The translations under genes were made by a program, and so were the position numbers. Shown in pieces: positions 1,672 through 31,725 of a stretch of DNA of 64,000 bases; position 1 is the first letter of the stretch, and every line of letters starts with the position of its first letter. The notes under the pieces were generated by a model. That model was not told where the DNA came from and made no database searches. It saw only the letters and a program-made list of their open reading frames with translations. Source of the stretch: Dictyostelium discoideum (lineage: Eukaryota); NCBI GenBank assembly GCA_000004695.1, contig CM000151.3, positions 1,824,001 through 1,888,000 on the forward strand, written 5' to 3'.

Positions 1672-1698
1672 CTTTTTTCTCTCACCAAAAAGGTCGCA

Positions 1699-8688: not shown

Positions 8689-10610
8689 TTAATTTGATTT
8701 TTCATGATCATAACCATAATCAATACTATTACCCAAAGTTGAGTTATTATTATTGTTATTATTATTAATAATTGGATTTGAAGAAGATGATAAATCTTTT
8801 TGAGTTACAACATCTAATTCTTTGGAATTAGCATTAGCATTATCATCAGTCATTGGAGTATCACCATTTAATTCATCCAAAACTGATTGATCAATTTCTT
8901 TGAATCTATAGGCAATAATGATAAAGATAAAGATGAATACAAACATTACAGAACCAAATAATAATGATAAAACATATTCTGGTAATTCAATTAATTCAAT
9001 TACAAAAGCATCAAACATATTACCAATGGAAACACAAATTAACCAACCTGCAATTACCAATGATTTCATAGAACGTGGTGAATTTGCATAGGCAAATTCT
9101 AAACCAGTGATTGATAATAAAACTTCAGCGGCAGTCAAGACAACATATTGTGGTATTTGTAAAGCGATATGTACAGATTCTGGTGGAGAGTTATCAATAT
9201 GAACTTGAATAATAGCTGAAATGTAAAATGCAATCACAGACAAAAACATACCGGTACCCATTCTACGAAGGAGTGTGAAATTAATCTTCTTTCTTTCCAA
9301 TGGACGATAAATACCATATTCAAAGATTGGTACGAAAATCATAACCAATAATGGATTAATACAATTGATAATTTCAGAATCAATTTCCCAACTTCCTAAA
9401 TGTCTATCCATAGAATTGGCTTGAATAGTCCAACGAGTACCAGTTTGATCATACAAAGCCCAGAAGAATGGTAATGGTACAAACACTGTTAAAACTCTTA
9501 ATACCAATTTCACTTGTTCAACAATTCTTGGTGAATATTTTAATTTGGCTCTGTCCAAGAAACTATTGTTATAGTAATGGTCATTGTATTTACTACCACG
9601 GAATGTTTTCTTTACACTTTCAGAGATACCGGTACCAACGATACAGAATGCAGTTGATAAAACGGATCCTTGTGGTTTACGTTTAACATATTGTTTATTA
9701 CCAACTAAATAAATTAAAATTGAAATAATTAATATACCAGCTGGAATTACAAATGCACACCAATAACCAACATTAGTTCTTAAAATTGGTGAAAGAATTG
9801 ATGAAAAGAATGATCCTAAATTTACACACCAATAAAATACTTGGAAAAGATTTTGAAGTAATTTCTTTTGATGTGGACCAAATTGATCACCACAAAATGA
9901 ACTTACAACTGGTTTAATACCACCTGTACCAATTGCAATACAAGTTAAACCAACAATTAAACCTAATTTTTTTTTTTTTTTTTAAAATAAATTTAATTAA
10001 TAAATTATTTTAATTTTTTAATTATTATTTTTTTTAAAATAGTATTTAAATATTTACCCCATGGTGATCTTTCACCTGGACTGTCACCAGTAATTCCTGG
10101 AATTGCAGTAATTGAAAAAATAGCAGCTCCAAAACAATATAAAATACTGAAATATAAAATTGTTTTGTATTTTCCTAAAACACCATCAGCAACATAAGCA
10201 CCAACAAGTGAACTTTTTTTTTTTTATAAAAAATAAATAAATATTAATAACTTTTTAATATTTTTTAAAAATTTAATGAAATTTACTTACAAAATATAAG
10301 CACCAGCATTAAAACCGTGACCAATTGAAGAAGCATTTTTTTCAGAATATCCCATGAAACTGATTAAATAATTTGTTAAAATACCTCTTAAAGCATAGTA
10401 TGAATACCTTTCACAAATTTCATTACCCATAATATATTTAATTGATGATGGAAAATGATTTTCATCCCCTCCATAAACAAAAACTTCATTATCAATACCT
10501 TCCATATCACCTTGTTTACCTTTAGATGAACCCTTTCCATCAATTGATGACCCTAAATTATCAATTGATGTTGATACACCAGAATTTGATGATTCTTCTT
10601 CTATCGCCAT
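8689..10610 (-). CDS. proton-dependent oligopeptide transporter (POT/PTR2 family), 3 exons: 10610..10291, 10212..10058, 9962..8689 (~582 aa)
   Basis: PTR2 signature 1 is GNEICERYSYYALRGIL. Exon 2 encodes GAYVADGVLGKYKTILYFSILY. Exon 3 encodes GTGGIKPVVSSFCGDQF and FYWCVNLGSFFSS. The donors are GTAAGT and GTAAAT, the introns are AT-rich (~78 and ~95 bp), and the phases are consistent. Confidence 0.85.
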
Positions 10611-10634
10611 TTTTTATAATAATAATTATTTTCT

Positions 10635-10665
<31 letters not shown>

Positions 10666-10966
10666 TGGTTCCCTTTTTTCCAAAAATAAATTTTTTTTTT
10701 TTTTTTTAACTATTATTTATTATTTTAATGTTATTAATAGATATTAATTTACAAAGATTTTGATTTTTTAAGCTATTAATACCACAAAAGGAATGGTATG
10801 TATATTTATAAATTTTTTTTTTATTATTATTTGGGGGTTTTTTTTTTTTTTTTTTTTTTTTTTATTTATTTATATATTTATTTATTTATTTATTTATTAT
10901 ATTAGTATTAATATTTAGTATTAAAAAACCAATAAAATTTCTTTAAACCGAATCTTCTAAAAATTT

Positions 10967-11008
<42 letters not shown>

Positions 11009-11042
11009 TTTTTATTTATATTATCATATATATATATATATT

Positions 11043-11340
11043 ATGAATAACATTTATTTATTTGAATTTCCCAAATATTTAAGATAATTTTTTAGAATGT
11101 TCTAGAACATTCGAAGAATAAAAAATTTTCGAAAGAAAAGTAAAAATTTCGAACCGGCACAATGACGCGATCATTGCGCAAGGTCGAAAAACTGAAAAAT
11201 TCCGAACCGACACTATGCACAAAGTTGTGAAGGGTCGAAAACTCTTATTTTTTTGAGTTTTGCTAAATTTTTAAGAAAATAAAAACGTATAAATAGTGGC
11301 ACTAAAAACTAAAACAATTTGATTTATTTTATTTGGGAAT
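11043..11340. repeat. DIRS-1 left inverted terminal repeat
   Basis: It is the reverse complement of 15481..15782 over ~300 bp. Shared strings include ...cgaaccggcacaatgacgcgatcattgcgcaaggtcgaaaa.... Confidence 0.85.
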
Positions 11341-11463
11341 TCCTCCTATATATATTTAAGATACACACACACACAAATTTTATACAAATAATTATTTCTC
11401 TTTATTAATTTTTAATATTATTATTTTTTCTCATATTATAATTTTAGATATCAACAATAAAAT

Positions 11464-12470
11464 ATGTCTACCACTGTTAATAATAATGATGCCTCTAGTA
11501 GTAGTACCTCTGCCTCTAATAGCGCTGAATCCTTTGATTTAAGAATGAAATCAATGGAGGATCAAATCAACAACCTTTCCTTAGCCTTTACAAGATTCAT
11601 GAAAGAACCTATGTTCTCTTCTAATACCAACTCACGTAGCCAACCTTCTCATGATAACTCTGACACCGAGAATGAACAAAGTGAAGATGAATCAAGTAAC
11701 AATGTCGATGTTCCAACCGATTATCAATTATCCGATACCTTACTTGGTCAGTACAAACATATGGTAAACAATAAAGGTTTACTCGTCGAAGAAGAATGTA
11801 TCCTCAAGAAAGATGAGATATCCGAATTGAATAAAGTATTCAACTTTCCATCTAACTTCCAAGTGAATGTCGCTCCATTCGGTACACCTGAAGGTATTAC
11901 TGTATCATCCAACGTCAAGAACAATGATACTGATTGTTGATTGTCGAAAAGCGAATCAACGATAGCTTGAAACCTTTGCTTCTCATGTCAAGTATGTTAT
12001 CATCTGATAGCTCTAATGTCGATGTAGAACTTATTAGTTACTTAACTCAGAGTGCAATCGTCTTAGCCGTTAACGCTCAAGCATCGCTTAGTCGTGTCCG
12101 TCGTAACAACATCGCTAAAGAAATCTATGGTTCTGAAGTACTCTTACCAATTAAGATCAAGGATACACCAAAGATGTTTGATGAAACTGAAACTGAACGT
12201 GTAAGAAAGCTAGCCAAGTCAATCAGAAAGAACAACGAAGCTAAACAATCATTGTTAAAATTGAATTATCATTCCAAGTCCAATGTCAAGAAATCAGTTA
12301 ACTCAAGTGGTAATAACACTACAGGAAACAGTAGTAATAGTAAATCCAGTAGTGGGAGTAATGGCCGATCTAACAACTTCAATGGATCACCAAGTAATGT
12401 TGCATCAGGTAGCAACAATACCAAGTCTGCCAACGGTACCAACAACCGTTTTCAGAAGAACAAGAAGTAA
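11464..12470 (+). CDS. DIRS-1 ORF1 (gag-like), present as two overlapping ORFs (11464..11940 frame 1; 11934..12470 frame 0)
   Basis: Two adjacent ORFs overlap by 7 nt. The products are S/N-rich with no recognisable domain. This may be one gene interrupted by a frameshift. Confidence 0.55.
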
Positions 12471-15384
12471 ACTTACCAGTAGGTGGACGTCTGTTCCACC
12501 ACAAACAAGTTTGGAAAGAATTGGGTCTTCCAAACTTTTGTCAAGAGGTCGTAAATGGATTAAAAGTCCATCTACTTCCAAACTTCAAGCCGATGCCAAA
12601 CCCAATTCCGATTTCAATTCCAGAGGGTCCAAAATCAGATTGCATCACAAAGGAAGTACAAGACTTGTTATTAGACGATGCCATCGAACAAGTACTTCCA
12701 AACCGTTATTCAAAGCGCGTTTTTTACTCCAACGTGTTTACGGTTCCAAAACCTGGAACGAATCTACATCGTCCAGTTCTCGATTTAAAAAGGTTAAACA
12801 CTTACATCAACAACCAATCATTCAAGATGGAAGGAATCAAGAATCTACCATCAATGGTCAAACAAGGTTATTACATGGTAAAACTCGATATCAAGAAAGC
12901 TTACCTCCACGTTTTAGTAGATCCGCAATACAGAGACTTATTTCGCTTCGTGTGGAAAGGTTCGCACTACCGTTGGAAAACAATGCCGTTCGGGTTATCG
13001 ACAGCTCCTCGTATCTTTACAATGTTGTTAAGACCTGTACTTCGAATGTTGAGAGATATCAACGTATCCGTCATCGCATACTTGGACGATCTATTAATCG
13101 TCGGTTCAACAAAAGAAGAATGTTTATCCAACCTCAAAAAGACAATGGACTTACTTGTCAAACTAGGTTTCAAGTTAAATCTAGAAAAGAGTGTTCTCGA
13201 ACCAACTCAATCAATTACATTTCTCGGATTACAAATCGATTCGGTATCAATGAAGCTTCTTGTTCCCAAAGAAAAGAAGAAAAGTGTCATCAAGGAAATA
13301 AGAAACTTTTTAAAACTAGATTGTTGCTCCCCAAGAAAGCTTGCTGGTTTAAAAGGAAAGCTAATCGCACTGAAAGATGCAGTCATCCCTTTCAGACTTT
13401 ACACTCGTCGAACAAACAAGTTTCACTCTCAGTGTCTGACTCTAGCCAATGGAGATTGGGATCAATCATTCCCCATTCCTCAAGAGGTCAAGTCAGAGAT
13501 TTCACATTGGTTAACAGTTCTAAACCAATGGAATGGAAAAGAAATCAGTCTGTTTCCAAGTTACGACTATGTTCTTACAACCGATGCCTCGGAATCAGGT
13601 GCAGGTGCCACACTCAAGAAAGGAAACAAGGTAATCAAAACTTGGTCATTCCAGTGGTCAACAACTCAATCAAACATGTCGTCAAATCGTCGAGAAATGC
13701 TCGCGCTGCTAATGGCCTATCAAGCGCTATGTCAGAAACTGAACAACTGCAAGCTGAAGATCCAAACCGACAATACTACCACTCTCTCATACATCAATCG
13801 CCAGGGTGGTCAGATACAAGATCTCTCAGTTCTGTTCGAACAACTTTGGAAACAATGCCTCAAGAAGAAAGTGAACTTGATTGGAGAGCATATTCCAGGA
13901 TTCTTCAATGTAAAAGCCGACCACCTCAGTCGTCTTTCAGAGATGAATCACAAATCATCGACCAGAGTAATCAAGAGTTACATCTGGCAACTGAAGAAGG
14001 AAGTGTTCAATCGCATCCAACTTCAATTCGGTCAAATACAGATGGATCTGTTCGCATCTCACCTCAACCATCAAACGAACAACTACTCAACAATAAGAAT
14101 GAATGCACTCAACCTCGATTGGAGTCAATGGAAGCAATGTCTGGCCTTTCCACCACCCATTCTTTTGCCTTCTATCCTGGAGAAGATGAACTCATCCAGT
14201 TCGAAGAAGGTTTCTATAATACTGATCTTCCCAATCTGGAGATCAGCAACTTGGTATCCGATGATTCAAGCACAAGTTCCTCGTCATCATCGTCACATGT
14301 TTCCTCAAGTACTGGGAACATTCCAAGAAGTATTGACCAAACAATCAGTAGAGTCGATACCAATCCAGATTCAACAACGTTGGAAGCTGGGGATTATTCA
14401 ACTTTCCAATCTCATGTAATGTCCTTCGCTCGTACAACAAATACAAAAACAGCTGAGCTGTTAATGAAGTCATGGGAACCTTCAACTCTCAAAGTATATA
14501 GCTCCAGTTATACAAGATTCCGCAATTTCTGTACTTTGAACTCTTTGAATCCAGCAAACATTACCTTAGTTGTTTTCATGGATTATCTTACACATCTATT
14601 CAAACACAAACCTCCGTTAGCTTTCTCAACTATTAACGGTCATCGATCTATGTTGAATCAGTTGTTACTCCTTAGGAATCAAACTGATATTGTTAATGAT
14701 CCATTCATTACAAGAATTATGACTGGTATTCACAAGTTGCGTCCTTCATCTGCAAAGTATAAAGAGATATGGGATGCAAATCAAGTATTCAAGCACTTAT
14801 CTACTATCAAAGTCATCCCCAAGTACACATACACTGCGCTATTAAACAAGACACTTGTACTCTGTAAAATGTTTGGTTTAGCAAGATCATCAGACTTGGT
14901 GAAGTGGTCGTTCAAAGGTCTCATTATTACTCCTGACTCAATCAAAGGTCCCGTTATTAATGCTAAAGAACAAAGAAGTGGTATTGTTTCAATCTTAGAA
15001 TTAACATCGTTAGATGATACTAACTCTCAAGTGTGCCCTGTTCGCCACCTTGCAACATACCTTAGAGCATCTAAAGGAAGAAGAAAGCCCCATTCGGGTG
15101 ACTCTGTCTTTATTAAGAATGAAGGTGAACCGCTCCAAGTTAATGATATTAATTCAATTGTACTATCAACACTCTCAAAGTCAGGTATTGATATTGTCAA
15201 GTTCAAATCTCACTCTACCCGTTCCGCTATGGCTTCTCTGCTGTTGTCCAATAACGTTCCGTTCCACGTTGTCAAAAAGATGGGTCGTTGGAAATCAAAC
15301 GATACTGTAGATACCTTCTACGATAAAAGAATCATTGGTGAAAAATCTGGTGGTTTCTTAAATACTGTCGTCCAAATTTCATAA
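12283..15384 (+). CDS. DIRS-1 long overlapping ORF (frame 1, 1033 codons). The C-terminal ~330 aa is a tyrosine recombinase (YR)
   Basis: The C-terminal segment from ~14420 onward reads ...MKSWEPSTLKVYSSSYTRFRNFC ... RHLATYL ... HSTRSAMASLLL ... GRWKSNDTVDTFY, which gives an R..H..R..Y catalytic arrangement. The N-terminal ~2.1 kb overlaps the RT ORF in another frame without stops, a known DIRS-1 peculiarity. Confidence 0.75.
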   Translation: MSRNQLTQVVITLQETVVIVNPVVGVMADLTTSMDHQVMLHQVATIPSLPTVPTTVFRRTRSKLTSRWTSVPPQTSLERIGSSKLLSRGRKWIKSPSTSKLQADAKPNSDFNSRGSKIRLHHKGSTRLVIRRCHRTSTSKPLFKARFLLQRVYGSKTWNESTSSSSRFKKVKHLHQQPIIQDGRNQESTINGQTRLLHGKTRYQESLPPRFSRSAIQRLISLRVERFALPLENNAVRVIDSSSYLYNVVKTCTSNVERYQRIRHRILGRSINRRFNKRRMFIQPQKDNGLTCQTRFQVKSRKECSRTNSINYISRITNRFGINEASCSQRKEEKCHQGNKKLFKTRLLLPKKACWFKRKANRTERCSHPFQTLHSSNKQVSLSVSDSSQWRLGSIIPHSSRGQVRDFTLVNSSKPMEWKRNQSVSKLRLCSYNRCLGIRCRCHTQERKQGNQNLVIPVVNNSIKHVVKSSRNARAANGLSSAMSETEQLQAEDPNRQYYHSLIHQSPGWSDTRSLSSVRTTLETMPQEESELDWRAYSRILQCKSRPPQSSFRDESQIIDQSNQELHLATEEGSVQSHPTSIRSNTDGSVRISPQPSNEQLLNNKNECTQPRLESMEAMSGLSTTHSFAFYPGEDELIQFEEGFYNTDLPNLEISNLVSDDSSTSSSSSSSHVSSSTGNIPRSIDQTISRVDTNPDSTTLEAGDYSTFQSHVMSFARTTNTKTAELLMKSWEPSTLKVYSSSYTRFRNFCTLNSLNPANITLVVFMDYLTHLFKHKPPLAFSTINGHRSMLNQLLLLRNQTDIVNDPFITRIMTGIHKLRPSSAKYKEIWDANQVFKHLSTIKVIPKYTYTALLNKTLVLCKMFGLARSSDLVKWSFKGLIITPDSIKGPVINAKEQRSGIVSILELTSLDDTNSQVCPVRHLATYLRASKGRRKPHSGDSVFIKNEGEPLQVNDINSIVLSTLSKSGIDIVKFKSHSTRSAMASLLLSNNVPFHVVKKMGRWKSNDTVDTFYDKRIIGEKSGGFLNTVVQIS
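12521..14419 (+). CDS. DIRS-1 pol: reverse transcriptase plus RNase H (frame 2). The track 'start' is TTG; the frame is open upstream into the end of ORF1
   Basis: RT motifs PQYRDLFRF, YLDDLLIVG and FLGL are present. RNase H motifs are VLTTDASESGAGATL, QTDNTT and NVKADHLSRL. The frame is offset by -1 from ORF1b, which suggests a gag-pol frameshift. Confidence 0.85.
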   Translation: MGLPNFCQEVVNGLKVHLLPNFKPMPNPIPISIPEGPKSDCITKEVQDLLLDDAIEQVLPNRYSKRVFYSNVFTVPKPGTNLHRPVLDLKRLNTYINNQSFKMEGIKNLPSMVKQGYYMVKLDIKKAYLHVLVDPQYRDLFRFVWKGSHYRWKTMPFGLSTAPRIFTMLLRPVLRMLRDINVSVIAYLDDLLIVGSTKEECLSNLKKTMDLLVKLGFKLNLEKSVLEPTQSITFLGLQIDSVSMKLLVPKEKKKSVIKEIRNFLKLDCCSPRKLAGLKGKLIALKDAVIPFRLYTRRTNKFHSQCLTLANGDWDQSFPIPQEVKSEISHWLTVLNQWNGKEISLFPSYDYVLTTDASESGAGATLKKGNKVIKTWSFQWSTTQSNMSSNRREMLALLMAYQALCQKLNNCKLKIQTDNTTTLSYINRQGGQIQDLSVLFEQLWKQCLKKKVNLIGEHIPGFFNVKADHLSRLSEMNHKSSTRVIKSYIWQLKKEVFNRIQLQFGQIQMDLFASHLNHQTNNYSTIRMNALNLDWSQWKQCLAFPPPILLPSILEKMNSSSSKKVSIILIFPIWRSATWYPMIQAQVPRHHRHMFPQVLGTFQEVLTKQSVESIPIQIQQRWKLGIIQLSNLM

Positions 15385-15480
15385 TATATATATATATATG
15401 ATAATATAAATTAAAAATTTAATTTATTAAATTATATTTTATATTAAATATATATATATATATTAGTCCCATCCCACCCG

Positions 15481-15782
15481 CCCTTAGTCGGAATTCCATA
15501 AATCAAATTGTTTTAGTTTTTAGTGCCACTATTTATACGTTTTTATTTTCTTAAAAATTTAGCAAAACTCAAAAAAATAAGAGTTTTCGACCCTTCACAA
15601 CTTTGTGCATAGTGTCGGTTCGGAATTTTTCAGTTTTTCGACCTTGCGCAATGATCGCGTCATTGTGCCGGTTCGAAATTTTTACTTTTCTTTCGAAAAT
15701 TTTTTATTCTTCGAATGTTCTAGAACATTCTAAAAAATTATCTTAAATATTTGGGAAATTCAAATAAATAAATGTTATTCAT
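15481..15782. repeat. DIRS-1 right inverted terminal repeat
   Basis: Mirror of the left ITR. The inner ends diverge slightly (ggaattccgac versus ttgggaattcc). Confidence 0.85.
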
Positions 15783-16650
15783 AATATATATATATATATT
15801 TAATATAAAATATAATTTAATAAATTAAATTTTTAATTTTATTACTTACAATGATAAAATAAAAATAAAAAATTATTATACAAATACAAATATAATACAG
15901 ATAATAATACAGTTATAATAATAAAAAAATAGTTTATTATATAAAGTAAATTATATATAAATTTCTAAGGAAAAAGGGGAATGAAAGGAAAATATTAAAA
16001 AAAAAAAAATAATTTCTTTATAAATAATTTTTTTTTTTTTTACTGGTTAAAAAAAAAAAAAAAATAAATCAAAATAAAAAACAAATAAATAATTATAAAA
16101 TTAGCCATTAAAAATATCTGTCCTCTCCTATTAATTCTATTTTTATTTTTTTTTGTTGCTTCGGAATTATTTCAAAAAAAAAAAATAAAAACAATCGGTT
16201 TCCAACCGAATCTTTTTTTTTTGTGGATTTTTTTTGGATTTTTTTTTATTTTTTTTTATTTTTTTTTAGATTTTTTTGGATTTTTTTTATCCCTTTTTTG
16301 TTAAATAATGTTGTGAAATTTTAAAAATGAACAAAAAATTGCAGATGAAAAGGTTCATTGCGAATAAAATTATTTTGTTTTATTAAATATTTATTGTAAT
16401 TTGTTTGATTGATTATGAACCATCACAACCGAAAATTCTTTTTTTTAAGTTTAAAAAAAAAAATTATGATTATATGGCAGGAAGCCAATCTCAAAAGTTC
16501 TGGATTTTTTTCAAAAAATAATAAATAAGACCTACATTACACAAAAGTTTTTATTTTTAAAATTTTTTTTCTCGAATAAAACAAGTTATACTTTTTTTTT
16601 TTTCTTTTACTTTTTTTTTATTTTAATAATAAAAAAAATTAAGATTAGAA

Positions 16651-17722: not shown

Positions 17723-18215
17723 ATGAGTCTTGAACTATCATTAAAAGAATTATTCTTAAATATTCCCAAGTGTTGGGAAACAAAACCAAATAAAACCGAA
17801 TATATGCAATTTTTATATCAAGAAGCAGTGGATATGGGAGTTTGGAGAAAAGATAATGAAATTGATATATTAACACATCATCATGTTACTGATTTATCAA
17901 GATTCTTTTGGCCAAAAGCTGACTTTGAAGGATTAGTATTAGGTGCAGAATTAATGGTTTGGTTTTTTGCATTTGATGAATTATTCGATGGTGGCTTCAT
18001 TGATGATGATGAGGATGAGCAATATACAATACACTGAACTTGAAACAAGTTTTGTTAAATCTTATAAATGTACTGCAGGTTTTAATTCAAATTTAATTCC
18101 AATTGTTGATCACGTAAGAAGTTTATCATATGAAAGTATAAGTTGGTCAGTTCAAACCCCTCGTTATATTAGTCAAACCAATCCTTTTGTTGAGTTAAGA
18201 AGAAATACTAAATAG
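17723..18215 (+). pseudogene. terpene synthase relic: N-terminal ~100 aa fused to C-terminal ~60 aa of a paralog of the TPS gene at 20774..21823, with an internal ~230-codon deletion, a frame break and a mutated DDxxD motif
   Basis: MSLELSLKELFLNIPKCWETKPNKTEYMQFLYQEAVDMGVWRKDNEIDILTHHHVTDLSRFFWPKADFEGLVLGAELMVWFFAFDELFDGGFIDDDEDEQY aligns with residues 1-100 of the intact gene. ...TELETSFVKSYK...SWSVQTPRYISQTNPFVELRRNTK aligns with its C-terminus. The two pieces lie in different frames. The motif is DELFD instead of DDLFD. Confidence 0.75.
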
Positions 18216-18420
18216 TTACTAATATTTGTAAATTAAAATAAAATATTAATATAAATCTAATATTAATTTTTAAAAAACTATCAATTTATGTTTTATCTAA
18301 TTGAATTCCATATATTTATTTTATTTTATTTTATTTTTTAAATTATTATAAATTATTATTATTATTATATAAATTATTTTTAAATTATTATATATAATAA
18401 TTTAAAAAAAAAATATATAA

Positions 18421-20193
18421 TTAATTTCTTGAAATTAATTTAATTGAGAATGGTATTGGGTGTATGGAAATACCTGAAACTTCTATATCTTTTAATTGCA
18501 TTCCATCAATGGACTTAATTTGAAAATTTAAAATAATATTTGCACAAACACTAAATAAATTTAATTCAGCAATTGATATACCTACACAATTTCTTGGACC
18601 AGTGGAAAAAGGTAAACAAACCCTATCAAGATCATTGAAATAATTATTATTTTGTATTGGTTGTGGTTGTTGTTGCTGTTGCTGTTGCTGTTGCTTTTGA
18701 TTATAATAATTTATCCATCTATCTGGATTAAATACATTTGGTTCATCAACATATAGATGACTCATACCAAATGCATTTGAAAGTATTTGAGTACCTTTTT
18801 CTATAAAAAAACCATTAATTTCACAATTTTGAGTTGCAATTCTTGGAACTGATAATGGAAGTGGTGTTCTTATTCTTAAAACTTCTTTAATAACATTAAT
18901 TAAATATTGACAATTATCTCTTTCTTTTAAAGATATAAACTTTATTTTACTTTCATTATTATTATCGCCCAATACAGAAATTAATTCATTATAACATTTC
19001 TCTTGAATGGCTGGATTATTAATTAAATATAAACATACCCATTCAAGTGTTGCTGCAACTGTATCATCACCAGCAAAAACAAAACTCATACAACCTTTAA
19101 TAATACTAATTTTCTTTTCTTCTAAAGTTGTATTTGGTGAATTTGTAAATTCATATTCAATGAAATAGTCCATTAAATCTCTAGGATTTGATTTATCAAA
19201 TTTTAATAAATGTTGATCATAAATTTCTTCCATAAATTTGAAAACTTTACTAGCACTATTATTTAATTTTTTATATTCATTTTTAAAAAATGGTCTTAAA
19301 ATTTTAATAAAATCACTAATATTACCAGTTCCTAATAATAAAAATACTTGTTGAATTGGTTCTGTTAATTTTGTAATTGGATCATTATCAATATTATTAT
19401 CATTAATATTAATTTGTTTTTCATCATTATCTTGTTTAAACATTATTCCTAAAACAATACTAATTGAAAATTTACCAAAATATTTTTTAGATTTAAACTA
19501 ATAATTATCAAAAAAAAAAAAAACAATTAGCACTATATTAATATATTTTAAAAACTTTAGTTTAATAACTATAAATATTCTAATACTTACTGGTTCATTT
19601 ATTTTTGAATGAGTTCTCATTGAATTAATTAAAATTTTAGTTTGATTTTCAATAACTTCTTTATAGTTTGATATTATTTTTGTTTTTGTAATTGATGATG
19701 AAACTATTTTTCTAATTACCGGCCACTTTTCATTATAATCAATAAATATTAAATTTACACCTCCACCAGTAAATGATTCAAAGCTTTTTAATCTTGGTCT
19801 ATCTGAAAAATTTGTAAATTGTTTAACCATAATTTCTTTATTTATTGATGGGTCTGTTACAATTACAGTTTTAATATCACCAAGCCATAATGAGAATATT
19901 CCTCCATTTTTTTCTACCAATTTTGTTAAATTTCTATGTGGATTAACTCCAAGTTTATAAAGATGTCCAATTATTGGCAAAGCATATGATAAAGTTGGTA
20001 CATCATACTTTTTAACTTTATTTTTCTTTATCTATTATTAAAAATAAAATAAAATTTTTAGTTTATTATAAATTTTTTAAAAAAAAATAATAAAAATATT
20101 AAATAATACAAAATAATTAAATATAATTATATTTACAAAATCAAAAATTAAAAAACAAACTAAAAAATAAAAAATTAATAATAATATATTCAT
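18421..20193 (-). CDS. cytochrome P450 monooxygenase, 3 exons: 20193..20137 (19-aa hydrophobic anchor MNILLLIFYFLVCFLIFDF), 20031..19591, 19497..18421 (~524 aa)
   Basis: The heme-binding loop is FSTGPRNCVGISIAE (F..G.R.C.G). The I-helix motif is AGDDTVAATLEW. The ExxR motif is EVLRIRTP. The N-terminal region reads ALPIIGHLYKL. Donors are GTAAAT at 20136 and GTAAGT at 19590, acceptors at 20032 and 19498, all exons are phase 0 and the introns are AT-rich (~105 and ~93 bp). Confidence 0.85.
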
Positions 20194-20773
20194 TAGTTAT
20201 TTTTAAATGCATAAATAATTAAAATGAATATTATTATTTTTTTTTTTTCTATTCTTTTTATATGATAAAATTATTTATTTTTTTTTTTTTTTTTTACAAA
20301 AAATTAAAATATAATAAAAAATCAGTTGAAATACATTCATCAAATAAATAATTTATAAATAAAACTAGCATTAATAAATTATTTCTACCAATTCTGACAC
20401 CCAGAAAATAATCTTTTTTTTTTTTTTCTTCAATTAAACTTGTTCATTAAAAATTTTTAAAAAATAAATGGGGGTTATTGTAAAAGTGGTATTAAAAAAA
20501 AAATTATTTTTTTTTTTTTTAAAAAAACAATCTCTTAATATTATTTTCTTGTCACCCAAGAGTGTTGATTTAAATTTATGGAAAACATGATTACAAAAAA
20601 GAATTTATATTATTCTAAAAAATATCAAGATTAACAGATAAAAAAAAAAAAAAAAAAAAAAACTGACCAAACTAAAAATATGAAATTAAAATAAATAATA
20701 TTAAAATTTGAATATTTAAATAGAAAATAATAATGATTTATTTAAATTATTCTTAAAAAATCAAGTGAAAAAA

Positions 20774-21823
20774 ATGGATATTAAAAATCTATCATTAAAA
20801 GATATAAAATTCCCTAAAAGTTGGGAAACAAAACCAAGTAAAATTGAATACATGCAATTTGTTTATCAAGAAGCAATTGATATGAAAGTTTGGAGAAAAG
20901 ATAATGAAATTGATATATTAACACACCACCATGTTACTGATTTATCAAGATTCTTTTGGCCAAATGCTGACTTTGAAGGATTGGTATTAGGTGCAGAATT
21001 AATGGTTTGGTTCTTTGCATTCGATGATTTATTCGATGGTGGTTTTATTGATGATAATGAAAATGAACAATATAGACTAGTGAATAGAATGAATAAAGTA
21101 TTCTTGGAAGGCACCATTGAGGATGACTCAACTGGTGCAGAGAGAATGGGGTATTATTTAAGAAATAAAGTTAGAGCAATATGTGGAGAGAAAAGACAAT
21201 CAACATTCCACCGTTTCAATAGCTCCTGCGTTCAATGGGTAGATTCAATAATACCATTTATTAAATTAAAAAGAAATCAAAAATCATTAGATTTCAATCT
21301 ATACATTCATCATAGAAAATTCAATATTGGTGCAATACCTTGTTTTTTGGTATCTGAAATCATTCTTGACCCAATGTCAAATATTGAATGTTTTATTTGG
21401 TTAGATTCAAGATGGATTAAAATGTCTGAAATCATTTGTGAAATAATTGCACTTGTAAATGATTGTGTATCCTATGAGAAGGAAATCAAAGAGAATGGTG
21501 CACCTTTAAATTCTCTAAAATTTATTCAAATTGAAAAGAATTTAAATTTACAAGAATCATTTGAATATATTTCAAATTATTTAAATGAACTAATTAACCA
21601 ATACATTGAACTTGAAACTAGTTTTATTAAATCCTATAAACCTATAACATCCAATTACAATTCAAACTTTATTGCAATAGTTGAACACTTACATAATATG
21701 TCATTTGCCAATGTTTCTTGGTCTACTCAAACTCCACGTTACCTTAGTCAAACACAACCATTTCTTGAATTAAGAAGAAATAAAAAAATTATTACAAAAA
21801 TTTATGATTTAAAAAATAAATAA
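20774..21823 (+). CDS. class I terpene synthase (Dictyostelium TPS family), 349 aa, unspliced
   Basis: The DDxxD motif is FFAFDDLFDGG. The NSE/DTE motif is LVNDCVSYEKEIKE (ND..S...E). The real ATG is at 20774; the track start at 20765 is GTG. The gene is divergent from the P450 gene, with a shared 5' intergenic region of ~580 bp. Confidence 0.85.
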   Translation: MDIKNLSLKDIKFPKSWETKPSKIEYMQFVYQEAIDMKVWRKDNEIDILTHHHVTDLSRFFWPNADFEGLVLGAELMVWFFAFDDLFDGGFIDDNENEQYRLVNRMNKVFLEGTIEDDSTGAERMGYYLRNKVRAICGEKRQSTFHRFNSSCVQWVDSIIPFIKLKRNQKSLDFNLYIHHRKFNIGAIPCFLVSEIILDPMSNIECFIWLDSRWIKMSEIICEIIALVNDCVSYEKEIKENGAPLNSLKFIQIEKNLNLQESFEYISNYLNELINQYIELETSFIKSYKPITSNYNSNFIAIVEHLHNMSFANVSWSTQTPRYLSQTQPFLELRRNKKIITKIYDLKNK

Positions 21824-22157: not shown

Positions 22158-24032
22158 ATGAGTATTAATAGTGATTATAATAAAGAGAATAATAATATAT
22201 CACCATTAAATACTAGTAGTGAAAGAAGAAGTAGTTTAAGGAATAGTTTAAATAATAGCAGTAATAATAATAATAATAATGTAATAAATACACCAACAGC
22301 TAATTCAATTAATAGTAGTGGTAATTTTTCACCAAAAGAATTTGTATCAAATATAGATGGTGAGGAGATAATTTATCAAAATCAAAGTGTAGAGTATAAA
22401 CAAAGATTATGTACCATTCAAATTAAACAATCTACATTAATCATTAAATTCAATGAAAAGGGTGGTTTCACTAAATATTTAGTATCAGATACGATAGTTG
22501 GATCAGAGATAACCAATGAATCCACCAATGAATATACAATCTACTCATGTGTAATGAATACATTGGATGTGACAAAGGAAACCAGAAGAAGAAAGCAATT
22601 CTCATTAAGATTTAGAGACAGATTCGAATTGAATCAATTCAATGACAAGTTTGTAGAGGCTTTCTTAGACACCCTTCCAATGGGCAATCCAAGGGAGAGA
22701 AGAATCAGGGTTATCCTAAATCCAAAATCTGGTAAGAAAATGTCGGATTCCATCTTTAAAGATATCAATGAGCTCTTTAAAGATTCGAAAATATTCGTAA
22801 AGAAAACCGTTACAAAAGGACCTGACCATGCGAAAAAGATTGGCTATAAATTCAACCTCAAGAAATACGATACCATAGTTTTCATATCTGGTGATGGTTT
22901 ATTCCACGAGTTTATCAATGGTCTTTTGAGTAGAACCGACTTTGAACAAGCTAGAAAGATACCATTGGCTTTGATCCCAGGTGGCACTGGTAATGGCATT
23001 GCTTGTTCCATCGGTTTACAAGATCCAATGTCTTGTGCATTAGCAGTTATACGTGGTTTCACTAAACCATTAGATGTTAGTGTAATTCAACAAGGTGATA
23101 AAAAATGGTGTTCAATCTTGTCTCTAACTTGGGGTATAGTATCCGATGTTGATATAGAATCTGAAAAGTATCGTGCCTTGGGTGATGTTCGTCTAATCTT
23201 GGGTGCAGCATTACGTATTCTAAACCTACGTATCTATCGTGGCAAAATTTGGTATTTACCAGCTTTAGAATTAAATAAAACAGAAATTGCTAAAATTCCA
23301 AAATGTTCTTATTCATGTGAAATTTGTGAAAGTGATAATCCAATTTCAACAATTGAAAATGTTATATCTCAACAACAACAAAATAATACAACAACAAATC
23401 AATTAAGACGTTCATCTTTAAATAATAGTAGTAATGGATTTTCACCAAAATTAAATACTAGTGGTAGTATTTCAAATGGAAATGATGATGAATTAAGATC
23501 AATGTTTTCAAAAGAAGAGAATATAAAGATTGAAAATGAAATACATGATCACCAAAATGATGATGTTTTACCATTACTTAAATCATCAAGTGATCAACAT
23601 TTCATTGTTCCACCAACTAAATTACCAAATCAACAATTCTTAAAAGAGACAAAAGAGGAGTTATTTGCAAAAGGTTGGAAAGTTTTAGAAGGTGAATTCA
23701 TTGGTATCGTCGCAAGTACAGTATCCCATTTAGCTTCAGATTTCATCGCATCTCCAACTGCACATCTTTCTGATGGTTTAATTGATTTAGTAGTAATTAA
23801 TAATAATAAGAAATTTAGTAAAGCAGGTTTATTATCAGTTTTAACAGAATCCTCAACTGGTGCTCATGTAAAGAGTGATCTCATTGATCAATATAAGGTT
23901 CAAGCTATGATCTTAGAACCAAGTAATGATAGAGAAGGTATTATTGCTGTAGATGGTGAATTAATCTCTTATGGTCGTACTTCAATGGAATGTATGAGAG
24001 CTTGTATTAATTTAATTTGTAGAACTTATTAA
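22158..24032 (+). CDS. sphingosine kinase-type lipid kinase (DAGK catalytic-domain family), 624 aa
   Basis: [13 protein letters not shown] is the ATP-binding N.SG.G-like motif. [15 protein letters not shown] and [13 protein letters not shown] are conserved in the SphK/CERK/DAGK catalytic domain. N/S-rich inserts are typical for Dictyostelium. Confidence 0.8.
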
Positions 24033-27350: not shown

Positions 27351-28612
27351 ATGATACTTGATAGTATTTTAAACAATAAAGGTAACAATAGGGAAAAAGC
27401 AAAAATAATTGAATCTACTCTTTTGTTAAACTATAATTATTTCCATATACTAGAAATTGTAAAAATATACGAAGGGAATGATGGAAGATATGATGGTATA
27501 AATGGAATGAAGGTAATTATTAATTATATCAAATGATCAATTAATTTTTACTATTTTACTATTTTACTATTTTACTATTTTACTAATTTACTAATTTACT
27601 AATTTACTAATTTAATATTTGAAAGTTAGTTTTCGAGTACAATAGATTCATTACAATGAAAATATTAAAAAATGATAGAAAAGATGAAATAGTAAGTGCA
27701 TGTCCATTTGTTAGAGTATTTTGGAAATGGCATCTAACAAATTCAAAAGCGTATGAACAATTTTGCAATATAATTGGATTCTTTATTCATCACACCCCAA
27801 TTACAGATAGTGTATATGAATTATATGCAAGAGAAATCGATGAAAGAAACATAAAAACTATTGAATTTTATAAGGAATGTTTTTCCGATATAAACTATTC
27901 TATTTGGAATTTCTATGATATGTTTGGTGATAATAGTTTAAAAAATCATAAAAAAAATAACAAACTTAAAACTAATAACAATAACAATAATAGTAATAGC
28001 AACTTAATTAATAAATCTCATAATCACCACAACCATCATCACCACAGAGAAAAACCAAAACAAAAAGAAAAAGAAAAAGAAAAAGAAAAAGAAAAAGAAA
28101 AAGAAAAAGAAAAAGAAAAAGAAAAAGAAAAAGAAAAAGAAAAAGAAAAAGAAAAAGAAAAAGAAAAAGAAAGAGAAAAAGAAAGAGAGAGAGAAAGAGA
28201 AAGAGAAAAAGAAAAAGAAAAAGAAAAAATTAAGCATAAAACTCATCAGGATAATCATAAAGATAATGATGGAATGCAAATAGGTAGTGTAAAAAGTGTT
28301 GAAAGTAATGTTAATGGTAGTGGTAGTGATATCAATGGTAGTTCCAAAAAAAGGAAAGCGGTTGAAGATGGACCAGAGTCAAATCAAAACAAACCTGGTA
28401 TTATTAAAAAAGCGATATTAAATAATAGTGCATTAGATGATATATTCAAAGAACAAAACGAGAAAAGAGAGAAACAAATGAAAGAAATAGAAAATAATAA
28501 TAAAATAAACAACAACAACACCAACAATAACTCTTTCATTAATTCCAAACCTAGCATCAATAACAACAACATCAAACCCAATATCAACAACTACAACTAC
28601 AACAACAACAAC

Positions 28613-28664
<52 letters not shown>

Positions 28665-30658
28665 GCAATAATAAATATGACGATGATGATGAATTGGATC
28701 TTAATATACAACCAAAGAATTTTCAAAAATTTAAGAAGCTAAGAAAATCTAAAGATAATGATGATGAAAATGAGCTGGAAAAACAAAAACAAGCAAAAGA
28801 AAAAGAAAAAGAAAAGGAAAAAGAAAAAGAAAAAGAAAAAGAAAAAGAAAAAGAAAAAGAAAAAGAAAAAGAAAAAGAAAAAGAAAAAGAAAAAGAAAGA
28901 GAAAAAGAAAAAGAAAAACAAAAAGAAAAAGAAAAAGAAATACAAAGAGAAAGAGAAAAAGAAAAAGAGAAGGAAAAAGAAAGAGAAAAAGAAAAAGAAA
29001 AGGAAAGAGAAAGAGAAAGAGAGAGAGAAAAAGAAAAAGAAAAAGAAATAGAAATAGAAAAAGAAAAAGAAAAAGAAAAAGAAAAAGAAAAAGAAAAAGA
29101 AAGAGAAATAGAAATAGAAATAGAAAGAGAAATAAAAAGAGAAATAGAAAGAGAGAAAGAAAAAGAAAGAGAAAAAGAAATAGAAATAGAAAAAGAAAAA
29201 GAAAAAGAAAAAGAAAAAGAAAAAGAAAAAGAAAAAGAAAGAGAAAGAGAAAGAGAAAGAGAAAGAGAAAGAGAAAGAGAAAGAGAAAGAGAAAGAGAAA
29301 GGGAAAGAGAAAAAGAAAAAGAAAGAGAAAGAGAAAAAGAAAAAGAAAAAGAAAGAGAAAGAGAAAAAGAGAAAAAGAGAGAATTGCAAAAGAAAAAACA
29401 AGAGGATAAAAGATTAGAAGAGAAAAAGACATTTGCTGAAGATTTTGAAAGAAAAAGATTAGAAAAAGTTGCTGAAATTAAAAGTAGAAATGATAAAATC
29501 GAAGAAGAATTTAGAAAAAATCAACAAAGAGAATTGGAAAAGAAAAAATTGGAAAATGAAACTACTTCCATTAAAAAACCAGAATTACATAGATTAGATG
29601 GTAAAAGAAAAGCTTTAAATTCATTATCATCATCATCTGAACAATCTTTGAATTTGTCTCCAACATCAATGTCTACAGCATTAACAACTACCACTACTAC
29701 TTCAACTGGTTTACCATCACCACCATCACCACCATCACCACCACCACCACCACCAAGCATCCCATCGTCAAATCAAATTAAAAAAGATGATAAAAATCAA
29801 AATATTACACCAAGCGATTTTGAGAAGGAATCGGTTGGACATCATAATAAAGTTTTATCATCAATTCAAAAACCACCATACTCACACATCCAACCTCCAC
29901 AACAACCACAACAACCACAACAACCACAACAACCACAACAACCACAACAACCACAACAACCACAACAACCACAACAACCACAACACCACAACAACAACCT
30001 CCAGTCCAACCACAACAACCACAGCAACCACAACAATCACAACAACCACAACCACAACCACAACAATCACAACAACATCAACAACCACAACAACTACAAC
30101 AACTACAACAACTACAACAACTACAACAACTACAACAATCACAGCAAAGGCCCCAGGTCCCACCACAACATCAACAATCACAACAACACCAAAATCAAAT
30201 TCAACTTCAACAATCCCAAATACAACCACAACAACAATCCCTAAATCGAAATCAACAATACCAAAACCAACCTAATTCGTCTTCTGCATTACAAAATGCA
30301 GCTGAACAATTAACAAGAGCGGGCAATGATGAGGTTTTAAAACAATTACAACTTCTTTCACAACAAAATCAGCAACATCGACAACCCCAACAACAACAAA
30401 CTATGGGTCAGCAAGCCCAACAACACCAAACCCACCAAACTATGGGTCAGCAAGCACAACAAAAACAACAACAACAACATCACCAACAACAACCTCAACA
30501 ACAACCTCAACAACAACCTCAACAACAACCCCAACAACAAAAACATCATCCCCAAATCGCTCATCAAACTGTACAATATCAAAATAATTACCAACAAACA
30601 CAGCCACATGCAGAAAGAGTTCACATGCATCAACAACCCCAACAACAACAACAACCCC

Positions 30659-30708
<50 letters not shown>

Positions 30709-30877
30709 ACCCAACAACAACAACAACAAACCCAACAACAACAACAACAAACCCAACAACAACAACAACGACAACCTCATCAACAACAACCTCATCAACA
30801 ACAACCCCAACAACAACAACAACAATCACCTCAACAACAACAAACTCAACAACATCAATCACCTCAACCTCAACATC

Positions 30878-30963
<86 letters not shown>

Positions 30964-31725
30964 CCTCAAATTGAAACTGATAAACCCTTAACAAATTCTC
31001 CATCCTTTGAAAGGATTAATGATAGAGATAGATTAGAAAGAAATCGATACGACGATGATAGATATTCGAATCGTTCATCATCACCCTCCCCATCATCAAA
31101 GAAATATTCAAGAGATGATTCAGACTATGCAAAAGGAAGATATAGCGATAGTAGAGATAGATACAATGATAGAGATAGAGATAGAGACAGAGATAAAGAC
31201 AGAGATAGAGAAAAAGAAAGAGATAGAGATAGGTATAGAGATAGATACAATGATAGAGATAGGGATAGAGATAGAGATAGGGACAGAGATAGGGACAGAG
31301 ACAAACACAATGATAGAAGTCTTGAAAGGGGTAAACAAAGAACTTATAGCACTAATTATAACAACAACAACCACAACCACAACAACAACAATAATAATAA
31401 TAACAACAACAATGGCAGCAACAATAGTAACAATAATAACAACAATAATGAAAATAATAATTATAATTATAATAATAACATCGATGATTTTGAAAAAACC
31501 AATATAATCGTTACTTGTGATGACCCAAATTGGACAAACTTTACGCTCAACATTGAAAAAAAACAAACATGTATTCAAGAAATCAGAAAACTTATAGTTG
31601 ATAAAAAAAGAATTAAATATGATTTTGATATTTTAGCTGATGGTAAAACTTTAGATAACTGGAGAAACCTTCAATTTTATGGATTTAAAGAAAAATGTAC
31701 ATTTGAAATTAAAATCAAAGAATAA
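27351..31725 (+). CDS. gene for a ~1400-aa low-complexity protein (EK/ER repeat region, poly-N, Q/P-rich region, RD-dipeptide repeat block, C-terminal ubiquitin-like-looking domain). Intron ~27513..27625. An apparent 1-nt frameshift near 29985 joins track ORFs 27656..30244 and 30403..31725
   Basis: Exon 1 (27351..27512) ends at AAG|GTAATT. The acceptor is AAAG at 27624-25 and gives an in-frame junction ...GINGMK|LVFEYNRFITMKILKND.... Frame 1 is open from ~29986 to 31725, as translated by hand (PQQQPPVQPQQ...QQTMGQQAQQ). Frame 2 is open up to ~29990, and both read the same CAA/CCA repeat. The RD block reads RDRDRDRDKDRDREKERDRDRYRDRYNDRDRDRDRDRDRDRDRDK. The C-terminus reads IVTCDDPNWTNFTLNIEKKQTCIQEIRKLIV...GFKEKCTFEIKIKE. 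Confidence 0.6.

Follow-up and report, generated by a model that had tools for sequence, protein, structure and literature searches.

Gene content of the DdTPS2-CYP519C1 locus

Within the window, that is, the whole stretch of 64,000 nucleotides that was analyzed, the genes of interest lie in the order PTR2-type transporter, DIRS-1-like element, DDB_G0272508, cyp519C1 (DDB_G0272556), tps2 (DDB_G0272510), and sgkA. A 349-aa terpene synthase (TPS), a 524-aa cytochrome P450, and a 104-aa sequence, together with the neighboring SphK A, exactly matched public records of Dictyostelium discoideum AX4, in agreement with the social-amoeba source assumed in the original prediction. An Rfam scan of the window yielded one tRNA and nothing else.

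The TPS is encoded by a single exon on the plus strand (20774..21823), within an ORF listed at 20765..21823 and with the ATG at 20774, and the database comparison suggested with the prediction identified it by exact match as Q7KWU0, 'Terpene synthase 2' (DdTPS2). Both of the motifs from which a class I enzyme had been predicted were located, the Asp-rich motif DDLFD at aa 84-88 (21023..21037), which conforms to DDxxD/E, and the NSE/DTE motif NDCVSYEKE at aa 229-237 (21458..21484). In addition, the C-terminal WSTQTPRY at aa 316-323 (21719..21742) conforms to WxxxxxRY, and the protein matched Pfam PF19086 with E = 3.4e-27 (95.9 bits, compared to a cut-off of 23.7). The best PDB sequence matches of DdTPS2, with E-values of 4e-11 to 2e-9, were presilphiperfolan-8-beta-ol synthase (8h6q), cucumene synthase (6m7f), and pentalenene synthase (1ps1), which share with it the single alpha-domain fold family and the DDxxD, NSE, and RY motifs, whereas the similarity is distant and their products are others.

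DdTPS6, which Rabe and colleagues reportedly identified in 2016 as protoillud-7-ene synthase, and DdTPS2 both act via humulyl-cation chemistry. DdTPS6 is the closest characterized paralogue, and both belong to clade I of the dictyostelid TPSs (PMC6156593); however, the two are only 46% identical, and DdTPS6 has no adjoining P450 in the published cluster survey (PMC6524965). DdTPS2 itself is listed as (+)-asterisca-2(9),6-diene synthase (PMC10088877, table), and terpene synthase activity has been reported for recombinant DdTPS1-9 (PMC6524965). According to the literature, DdTPS2 is a cyclizing class I sesquiterpene synthase that also forms linalool in vitro, and the DdTPS genes are developmentally expressed, most of them with prestalk enrichment.

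The P450 occupies the minus strand from 20193 to 18421 and comprises three exons encoding 524 aa, an exact match to UniRef100_Q1ZXN4, 'Probable cytochrome P450 519C1' (CYP519C1). Exon 1 (20137..20193, 57 nt), which is part of the Q1ZXN4 match and kept in orthologues, encodes a 19-aa hydrophobic membrane anchor, MNILLLIFYFLVCFLIFDF. It is followed by intron 1 (20032..20136, 105 nt, GTAAAT..AG, phase 0), exon 2 (19591..20031), with the basic stop-transfer IKKNKVKK and the proline hinge PTLSYALPIIGHL, intron 2 (19498..19590, 93 nt, GTAAGT..AG, phase 0), and exon 3 (18421..19497), which carries the I-helix, ExxR, PDRW, a poly-Q tract, and the heme loop and ends with a TAA stop at 18421..18423. The three-exon model of ~524 aa that had been proposed from the sequence is thus identical to the curated Q1ZXN4, and it is kept in five relatives; the position and the GT..AG ends of intron 2 are kept in five orthologues. 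As had been pointed out, the 57-nt first exon is absent from the ORF list, in which the rest of the gene appears as two ORFs of 340 and 160 aa.

The motifs that had marked the P450 as complete were all found: the heme loop FSTGPRNCVG at aa 463-472 (18609..18580), which contains the Cys ligand of FxxGxRxCxG, the I-helix AGDDTV at aa 308-313 (19074..19057), and the K-helix ExxR as EVLR at aa 371-374 (18885..18874). The PERF-like motif is a PDRW variant (18726..18715), all of these motifs are kept in five orthologues, and Pfam PF00067 matched with E = 6.3e-84 (282.8 bits). The anchor, the IKKNKVKK segment, and the proline hinge together follow the pattern of a microsomal (class II) P450, a class for which localization in the endoplasmic reticulum (ER) and dependence on a reductase are established. 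In our literature search, no paper on the activity or characterization of CYP519C1 was found. Its mRNA peaks at 16 h of development (PMC6524965).

The start codons of the two divergent genes are separated by 20194..20773, which is exactly 580 bp, as had been predicted (~580 bp) and as published (PMC6524965). Alignment of six orthologous spacers revealed non-AT islands that are kept in relatives, AGTCAGTTGAAATACA (~20322), TACCAATTCTGACA (~20383), AAATGGGGGTTAT (~20467), and AATCTCTTAAT..TTTTCTTGTCACCC (~20529-20557). The spacer is presumably a bidirectional promoter, in which these islands may have a regulatory role.

The original prediction had left open whether this was the TPS-P450 cluster reported to make a trisnorsesquiterpene or a second one. 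The former, the DdTPS8-CYP521A1 discodiene cluster, resembles the present locus in organism, in the head-to-head TPS/P450 design, in a developmental expression peak near 16 h, and in an ER-type P450 needing a Dictyostelium reductase (RedB). However, it is found on chromosome 6 and its spacer measures 685 bp, compared to chromosome 2 and 580 bp here, and the proteins encoded here are identical to DdTPS2 and CYP519C1; the discodiene cluster is excluded. The exact protein identities make it virtually certain that the locus is the second one, DdTPS2-CYP519C1-DdTPS11, from AX4 chromosome 2, which was described as a 'putative' TPS-CYP cluster by Chen et al. 2019 (PMC6524965; eLife 8:e44352, section 10, Fig. 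7A), with DdTPS2 and CYP519C1 head-to-head, a 580-bp spacer, and a partial TPS beyond CYP519C1. The proteins, the spacer, and the partial TPS are all the same, and the window differs in nothing from that description. An unaided reading of the sequence recovered a published locus, including the correct three-exon model of its P450. Both the locus and its arrangement had been described before, and what is new is the comparison of eight syntenic loci of related genomes, including those designated L001, L002, L003, L007, and L008.

The terpene synthase relic beyond CYP519C1

On the other side of CYP519C1, the plus-strand segment 17723..18215, annotated as DDB_G0272508, had been interpreted as a degraded TPS copy with only the N- and C-terminal ends left, and the alignments bear this out. 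Judging from its position and the eLife text, DDB_G0272508 very probably corresponds to the published partial gene 'DdTPS11'; that text (PMC6524965) misprints DdTPS11 as 'DpTPS11'.

The relic aligns with DdTPS2 in two blocks, 17757..18031 with 20805..21079 (89% identity) and 18027..18212 with 21599..21787 (73-90% identity), a similarity that is far beyond chance. The spacing of the paired repeats is 3048 in the first block and 3572-3575 in the second, and the difference of ~525 bp corresponds to an internal deletion. Compared to the intact orthologous gene, here called TPS-A, ~520 bp (3x173+1, and hence frameshifting) are missing, which removes roughly codons 103-276, including the NSE/DTE motif. 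By blastn, the window matches L001 to position 10304 up to 18026 and from position 10825 onward from 18023, so that the junction consists of the 4 nt 'TATA' at 18023..18026, which match both flanks; the same breakpoints were seen against L002, L007, and L008. The junction was fixed by low-complexity-filtered blastn and the repeat registers, whereas MAFFT misplaced the C-terminal part of the relic.

The N-terminal part (17723..18026, plus strand) represents TPS-A codons 1 to ~102 and exactly matches XP_645123.1/Q7KWU2; its frame stops at a TGA at 18035..18037. Its Asp-rich motif, which in the intact TPS-A copies is DELFD or DEIFD, survives as DELFD (17975..17989), and this part is 93-94% identical to TPS-A of L007 and L008, compared to 88% for AX4 TPS2. 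The C-terminal part (18027..18215, plus strand; QYTELETSF...WSVQTPRY...RRNTK) is in a different frame from the N-terminal part, terminates early at a TAG caused by a 1-bp deletion, and is 91% identical to TPS-A of L007 and L008 and 73% identical to AX4 TPS2. These affinities were read from pairwise identities over shared columns, since a neighbor-joining tree gave the relic an artificial long branch (gaps were scored as mismatches).

These features identify the relic as a pseudogene of a tandem or segmental TPS duplicate, TPS-A. Public annotation contains a 104-aa and, in a newer version, a 153-aa model for it, and the N-terminal 100 codons are still open, as would be expected if it encoded a functional short protein. 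Such a function is nevertheless very improbable, given that the deletion is out of frame, the NSE motif is gone, a Pfam scan of both pieces gave no match, and the orthologues in three sister lineages bear other, unrelated disabling lesions, which is the pattern of a gene freed from selection.

The locus in related genomes

The P450-TPS2 pair is intact and head-to-head in D. cf. discoideum (two assemblies), D. citrinum, D. firmibasis, and D. dimigraforme. Whereas Chen et al. 2019 called the cluster species-specific relative to D. purpureum, our comparison places it in five more genomes of the D. discoideum clade. The dN/dS values of 0.14-0.38 for the P450 and 0.11-0.19 for TPS2 indicate purifying selection on the pair in the five relatives. 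The PTR2-to-sgkA neighborhood is collinear in all of the relatives, so retained adjacency alone is no evidence of selection for clustering. One D. cf. discoideum also has a second locus that contains both CYP519C-like and TPS2-like segments.

In two of those five genomes, D. citrinum and one D. cf. discoideum, the orthologue of the partial TPS of Chen et al. 2019 is an intact gene, encoding TPS-A proteins of 347 aa (L001) and 351 aa (L003). Because the orthologue is intact there, the relic in AX4 is directly shown to be the decayed one of two TPS copies that once flanked the P450, as the original prediction held. For the same reason, the comparison shows that the ancestral unit was TPS-A (+) / P450 (-) / TPS-B (+), in which TPS-B corresponds to TPS2. 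In AX4, TPS-A was killed by the ~520-bp out-of-frame internal deletion that removed the NSE motif, while the P450 and TPS-B stayed intact. TPS-A and TPS-B differ by ~25-30% at the protein level and in the Asp-rich motif (DExxD versus DDxxD), and their products probably differ as well.

TPS-A has been inactivated in four lineages by different lesions. In L002, TPS-A is dead and the P450 is intact, and in D. firmibasis and D. dimigraforme the P450 is accompanied by TPS-B only. In L007 and L008, two assemblies labeled D. discoideum, TPS-A is frameshifted, and a 3.3-kb deletion has taken out the P450 along with three quarters of TPS2. A protein search with CYP519C1 was incomplete, as it missed the known orthologues of L001-L003, and its silence on strains W and R does not mean that the P450 is absent elsewhere in these strains. 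The TPS-A frameshifts in L002, L007, and L008 were judged unlikely to be assembly errors, given that 8-bp deletions and stop substitutions are among the lesions, that the junction of strains W and R is identical in two assemblies, and that the adjacent 1.9-kb sgkA ORF is intact throughout.

These comparisons show an evolutionarily unstable cluster, in which the ancestral TPS-A/P450/TPS-B unit underwent independent inactivation of TPS-A, gene conversion between its TPS copies, and, in nature, the deletion of P450 and TPS2. They also bring out natural strains that would be usable as controls in a functional test.

Possible relation of CYP519C1 to the DdTPS2 product

The best explanation of the locus as a whole, which we consider fairly probable, is that of the known DdTPS2-CYP519C1 pair in which the P450 would tailor the DdTPS2 product under a shared promoter. 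Tailoring of a TPS product by CYP519C1 is put forward as a hypothesis here, as it is in the literature. Among the features of a strict biosynthetic gene cluster, in which neighboring genes serve consecutive steps of one pathway, the adjacency of scaffold-forming and tailoring enzyme was found, in the form of the 580-bp head-to-head arrangement kept in five relatives. D. discoideum has ~12,500 genes. With 11 TPS and 54 CYP genes and three cases of a TPS-adjacent CYP reported (PMC6524965), we estimate that ~0.1 adjacent TPS-CYP pairs would be expected by chance, compared to the three reported (P ~1e-4). Only three P450s have been reported beside a TPS in D. discoideum, CYP519C1 among them, and the locus has value as a lead.

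In the proposed mechanism, the 580-bp spacer would serve as a shared, developmentally induced bidirectional promoter, and cytosolic DdTPS2 would cyclize farnesyl diphosphate (FPP) via Mg2+ held by DDLFD and NDCVSYEKE. CYP519C1, with the 19-aa first exon as its ER anchor and with electrons from a Dictyostelium P450 reductase (for example, RedB), would then oxidize part of the DdTPS2 hydrocarbon to a less volatile, undescribed product. For promoter, cyclase, and P450 taken jointly, we place this mechanism about midway between probable and improbable. More tentatively, CYP519C1 may turn asterisca-2(9),6-diene into an asteriscane, oxygenated or degraded and so far undescribed, with a signaling role in development or ecology.

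For the DdTPS8-CYP521A1 pair, the conversion of discoidol to discodiene is biochemically proven, E. coli co-expression with RedB worked for CYP521A1, and the DdTPS8 product is consumed and hence absent from the headspace; in contrast, the DdTPS2-CYP519C1 pathway is only putative, and the DdTPS2 sesquiterpene is present, unmodified, in the headspace, as part of the developmental volatile bouquet (PMC6524965, introduction). Since the product is released in this form, no more than part of it can be consumed. In addition, the expression of CYP519C1 is reported to correlate with that of DdTPS8 (r = 0.951; PMC6524965 supplements, which also give the CYP519C1 gene ID), and the adjacency may be passive in a region that is collinear across species. 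Together, these observations are consistent with two genes that are neighbors by descent and not partners, in which case CYP519C1 would act on another substrate (discoidol, another DdTPS product, a polyketide, or a sterol) and DdTPS2 would simply emit asteriscadiene. We regard this as possible but somewhat doubtful, given that TPS-CYP adjacency is enriched by our own estimate and biochemically proven in one of the three cases (PMC6524965), that the pair is constrained and intact in six genomes, and that TPS2-like and CYP519C-like copies move together to a second locus. The joint loss of P450 and TPS2 in L007 and L008 also speaks for the pair, but it is a single event, caused by one deletion.

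A further possibility is that TPS-A was the original partner of the P450, and that CYP519C1 was orphaned in AX4 and is decaying or has been recruited elsewhere. TPS-A is convergent with the P450 in the ancestral cluster and, with its DExxD motif and divergent protein, probably made a different product. However, P450 and TPS-B persist together without TPS-A in D. firmibasis and D. dimigraforme, the P450 is intact next to the dead TPS-A of L002, and purifying selection on the P450 persists on AX4 branch pairs (omega 0.14-0.22). These results make an orphaned CYP519C1 quite unlikely, and oxidation of the DdTPS2 product is the reading that we prefer.

If CYP519C1 does oxidize the DdTPS2 product, the D. 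discoideum species complex would offer natural genotypes of the pathway, and with them a ready system for studying how a eukaryotic metabolic gene cluster outside plants and fungi is born, decays, and is lost. The three-gene TPS-A/P450/TPS-B genotype would be represented by D. citrinum and one D. cf. discoideum, the two-gene genotype by AX4, D. firmibasis, and D. dimigraforme, and the complete null genotype by the two assemblies that lack the P450 and most of TPS2 through the 3.3-kb deletion and have a frameshifted TPS-A.

The DdTPS2-CYP519C1 pair and its identity

The terpene synthase of the pair is encoded on the plus strand by an uninterrupted reading frame of 349 aa (ATG at 20774, stop to 21823), which contains both metal-binding motifs of class I enzymes, DDLFD (aa 84-88) and NDCVSYEKE (aa 229-237), as well as a C-terminal WSTQTPRY. 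The protein matched Pfam PF19086 (Terpene_syn_C_2) with 95.9 bits, compared to a cut-off of 23.7, and an exact-sequence look-up identified it as Terpene synthase 2, DdTPS2 (TPS2_DICDI, Q7KWU0, DDB_G0272510). Among solved structures, its nearest relatives are microbial-type sesquiterpene cyclases, namely the presilphiperfolanol, cucumene, and pentalenene synthases (E = 4e-11 to 2e-9). Rabe et al. are said to have reported asterisca-2(9),6-diene as the DdTPS2 product in 2016. In agreement, (+)-asterisca-2(9),6-diene is listed as the product of this cyclising enzyme in a published table (PMC10088877). In vitro, DdTPS2 also forms linalool; the volatile bouquet released during development contains the DdTPS2 sesquiterpene (PMC6524965).

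The P450 is encoded on the minus strand by three exons (20193..20137, 20031..19591, and 19497..18421), separated by phase 0 introns of 105 and 93 nt with the ends GTAAAT..AG and GTAAGT..AG. The joined exons encode 524 aa, whereas the mechanical ORF list reports the gene as separate ORFs of 340 and 160 aa. At the N-terminus, a hydrophobic anchor of 19 aa precedes a basic stretch and a proline hinge, and the protein also contains the motifs AGDDTV, EVLR, PDRW, and FSTGPRNCVG; Pfam PF00067 was matched with E = 6.3e-84. The spliced protein is identical to Probable cytochrome P450 519C1 (CYP519C1, Q1ZXN4) in the exact-sequence look-up, and the description, coordinates, and gene model of the original prediction were all correct.

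The start codons of DdTPS2 and CYP519C1 are separated by 580 bp (20194..20773), and the next gene after tps2 is sgkA (22158..24032), identified as sphingosine kinase A by exact-sequence look-up. The whole window is very AT-rich (GC mostly 0.15-0.30). Exactly this DdTPS2-CYP519C1 locus, which belongs to a known kind, was described before, in section 10 and Fig. 7A of Chen et al., 2019 (PMC6524965). The discodiene cluster, DdTPS8-CYP521A1, was ruled out as the identity of the locus: that cluster is proven and lies on chromosome 6 with a 685-bp spacer, whereas DdTPS2-CYP519C1, on chromosome 2 of D. discoideum AX4 and with a 580-bp spacer, is putative. The original prediction had left open whether this was the reported trisnor-sesquiterpene cluster or a second one. 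Because the reported cluster is located elsewhere, the question is settled in favor of the second, still putative cluster.

The second synthase copy and the locus in related genomes

Contigs encoding the matches of a protein search with DdTPS2 were retrieved, and the eight related loci obtained in this way were mapped onto the window. Seven of the eight are syntenic with it from the PTR2 transporter gene to sgkA, and the remaining one, L006, is at a different place in the genome of D. dimigraforme. In D. citrinum (L003) and one D. cf. discoideum (L001, ACTFIZ), the order is TPS-A(+), P450(-), and TPS-B(+), where TPS-B corresponds to DdTPS2 and TPS-A to the copy on the far side of the P450. Both synthases are intact in these two genomes (351 and 350 aa, and 347 and 347 aa, respectively), with TPS-A at 10001-11056 in L003 and at 10001-11044 in L001. 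The other D. cf. discoideum (L002, ACTFIY) has the same order as L001; there, codon 131 of TPS-A (10001..11040) is changed from AAA to the stop TAA, and the gene also has an 8-bp deletion. D. firmibasis (L004) and D. dimigraforme (L005) have the P450 and TPS-B only. All five CYP519C1 orthologues retain the three-exon structure with GT..AG introns, the conserved first exon, a single terminal stop, and all of the catalytic motifs.

For the two assemblies labelled D. discoideum, L007 and L008 (ACTFIW and ACTFIR; GCA_054859355.1 and GCA_054859385.1), a frameshifted TPS-A is followed by ~45 bp and only the last ~78 codons of TPS-B. At this locus, both lack the equivalent of window 18266..21587, a 3.3-kb deletion that removes CYP519C1 entirely, together with the spacer and 814 bp from the start of TPS2, with an identical junction in both assemblies (L007 ~11067..11092, L008 ~11053..11078). 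The TPS-A lesions of the two differ: a 1-bp deletion in L007 (10001..11046), compared to a stop and two deletions, of 8 bp and 1 bp, in L008 (10001..11032). The lesions are unlikely to be assembly noise, because the 1.9-kb ORF of the adjoining sgkA is unbroken at each of the seven syntenic loci.

The degraded copy in the window (17723..18215, DDB_G0272508), most likely the partial 'DdTPS11', lies on the plus strand as two pieces in different frames of the ORF list. The pieces correspond to two repeat pairs, 17757..18031 versus 20805..21079 (89% identity) and 18027..18212 versus 21599..21787 (73-90% identity), whose registers are ~525 bp apart; the 104-aa ORF is an exact match to Q7KWU2. Identity to TPS-A of L007 and L008 is 93-94% over the N-terminal part and 91% over the C-terminal part, compared to only 88% and 73%, respectively, for TPS2 of AX4. 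The relic is therefore the TPS-A orthologue. Relative to intact TPS-A, it has lost ~520 bp (3x173+1), roughly codons 103-276 including the NSE motif, at a junction on a 4-nt TATA common to both flanks (18023..18026), and an additional 1-bp deletion creates a premature TAG. A newer automatic annotation (P0008, KAM9951897.1) derives a 153-aa protein from both pieces by placing a very short intron over the deletion junction, and this model is most likely an annotation artefact bridging the frameshift. Among the four disabled TPS-A copies (L002, L007, L008, and AX4), no lesion is common to any two, a pattern that suggests either that the gene decayed several times independently or that a single earlier inactivation is hidden.

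The cluster was termed species-specific in the eLife paper, from a comparison with D. purpureum (PMC6524965). In the newer genomes, the cluster is seen across the D. discoideum clade, and sister lineages retain an intact form of the gene of which DdTPS11 is a remnant. Within our limited literature access, no paper on those genomes was found that reports the clade-wide cluster or the origin of DdTPS11.

In a neighbor-joining tree, TPS-B, including the D. firmibasis and D. dimigraforme copies, formed a clade with 100% bootstrap, with TPS-A outside. This topology suggests that the A/B duplication is older than D. firmibasis and D. dimigraforme, with TPS-A lost there later; a higher evolutionary rate in TPS-A could produce such a tree as well. 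A published analysis (PMC6156593) takes DdTPS2 itself to be a duplicate of the DdTPS6 lineage post-dating the D. purpureum split, and the two proteins shared 46% identity in the DdTPS2 protein search.

In L001, TPS-A (~10100..10450) and TPS-B (~13730..14080) are 100% identical over alignment columns 101-250, 94-96% identical to column 450, and only ~80% identical further 3', whereas TPS-A orthologues show 9-14% difference from one another in the matching 5' stretch. The synonymous divergence (dS) between A and B is also lower within a genome than between genomes. The L001 5' stretch is a gene-conversion tract between the two direct repeats flanking the P450.

The dN/dS values were 0.14-0.38 for the P450, 0.11-0.19 for TPS-B/DdTPS2, 0.22 between the two intact TPS-A copies, and 0.08-0.12 for sgkA. 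Synonymous divergence of sgkA from AX4 reached 0.41-0.57 in the three named species, compared to 0.15 in L001 and 0.07-0.09 in L007, L008, and L002. L007 and L008 (dS 0.07-0.08 at sgkA, 6-14% difference in flanking DNA) are about as distant from AX4 as one D. cf. discoideum (dS 0.09), and cryptic lineages may be hidden under the species labels of the D. discoideum complex.

Proposed coupling of DdTPS2 and CYP519C1

In AX4, two genes of suitable enzyme classes stand head-to-head, both intact and under selective constraint, together with one dead paralogue. Developmental expression is known for both gene families. The 580-bp spacer would act as a shared promoter; in the spacer alignment, four non-AT islands show conservation among the closest relatives, which extends in part as far as D. 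citrinum or D. dimigraforme. DdTPS2 would cyclise FPP in the cytosol, and the ER-anchored CYP519C1, reduced by a Dictyostelium reductase, would oxidise part of the hydrocarbon.

We regard this putative coupling as evenly poised. Adjacency of TPS and CYP genes occurs in three cases in D. discoideum, compared to ~0.1 expected by chance in our own estimate, and one such pair, DdTPS8-CYP521A1, is already proven (PMC6524965). In addition, the P450-TPS2 pair is intact in six genomes, and TPS2-like and CYP519C-like segments also occur together in a second, scrambled array of one D. cf. discoideum. Against the coupling, the whole neighborhood is collinear in the relatives, and the adjacency could therefore be passive; asteriscadiene is emitted unmodified, and the sole published correlation of CYP519C1 expression is with DdTPS8 (r = 0.951; PMC6524965). 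The same paper lists CYP519C1 (DDB_G0272556) as full-length, with a developmental peak at 16 h; the P450s cloned and assayed there were only CYP521A1, which needed RedB as reductase and worked when expressed in E. coli BL21, and CYP508C1. A literature search that included social-amoeba TPS-P450 clusters found no later functional study of DdTPS2, CYP519C1, or DdTPS11.

Additional features of the window and of related loci

The second array lies on one contig (JBTAPI010000065.1; L009 1..11050 and L010 1..11400) of the same assembly as L001 and is non-syntenic with the window. It contains two intact-looking TPS genes, whose proteins are 70-71% identical to DdTPS2, and, in scrambled order, three or more copies or fragments that are CYP519C-like; tgrO1-like Ig/TIG genes adjoin the array. 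The unrelated D. dimigraforme locus holds an extra TPS-B-derived copy (L006 10634..11676), which groups with that species' own TPS-B (100% bootstrap) and retains DDLFD and NDCISYEKE intact. This copy has no adjoining P450, and its frame is apparently shifted by 1 bp close to codon 17.

In CYP519C1, a poly-Q/poly-N tract (18628..18700, aa ~433-456) occupies the loop that links the PERF-like motif PDRW to the haem-binding loop, which for a P450 is an unusual site of a hypervariable homopolymer. The tract is nearly missing in D. firmibasis and reaches ~55 Q in one D. cf. discoideum, whose P450 has 571 aa compared to 524 aa in AX4.

Between the PTR2 gene and the relic lies a GC-rich element (GC ~0.39) of 4.86 kb (10982..15843). 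Its inverted terminal repeats (10982-11327 and 15498-15843) are 346 nt long, with 94% complementarity, and it carries overlapping long ORFs, one of which (12283..15384) contains a tyrosine-recombinase domain (PF00589). The repeats, overlapping ORFs, and PF00589 are hallmarks of DIRS-1-type retroelements. Because it is missing from all seven syntenic loci, the element is an insertion on the AX4 lineage.

The sole RNA gene in the window by ARAGORN and Rfam is a tRNA-Gln (anticodon UUG, 1599..1672). Extreme strand skew was seen at 28001..31000 (AT skew 0.63-0.67; GC skew -0.77 at 30-31 kb), overlying the long ORFs 27656..30244 and 30403..31725, which have no Pfam match and are probably low-complexity coding sequence.
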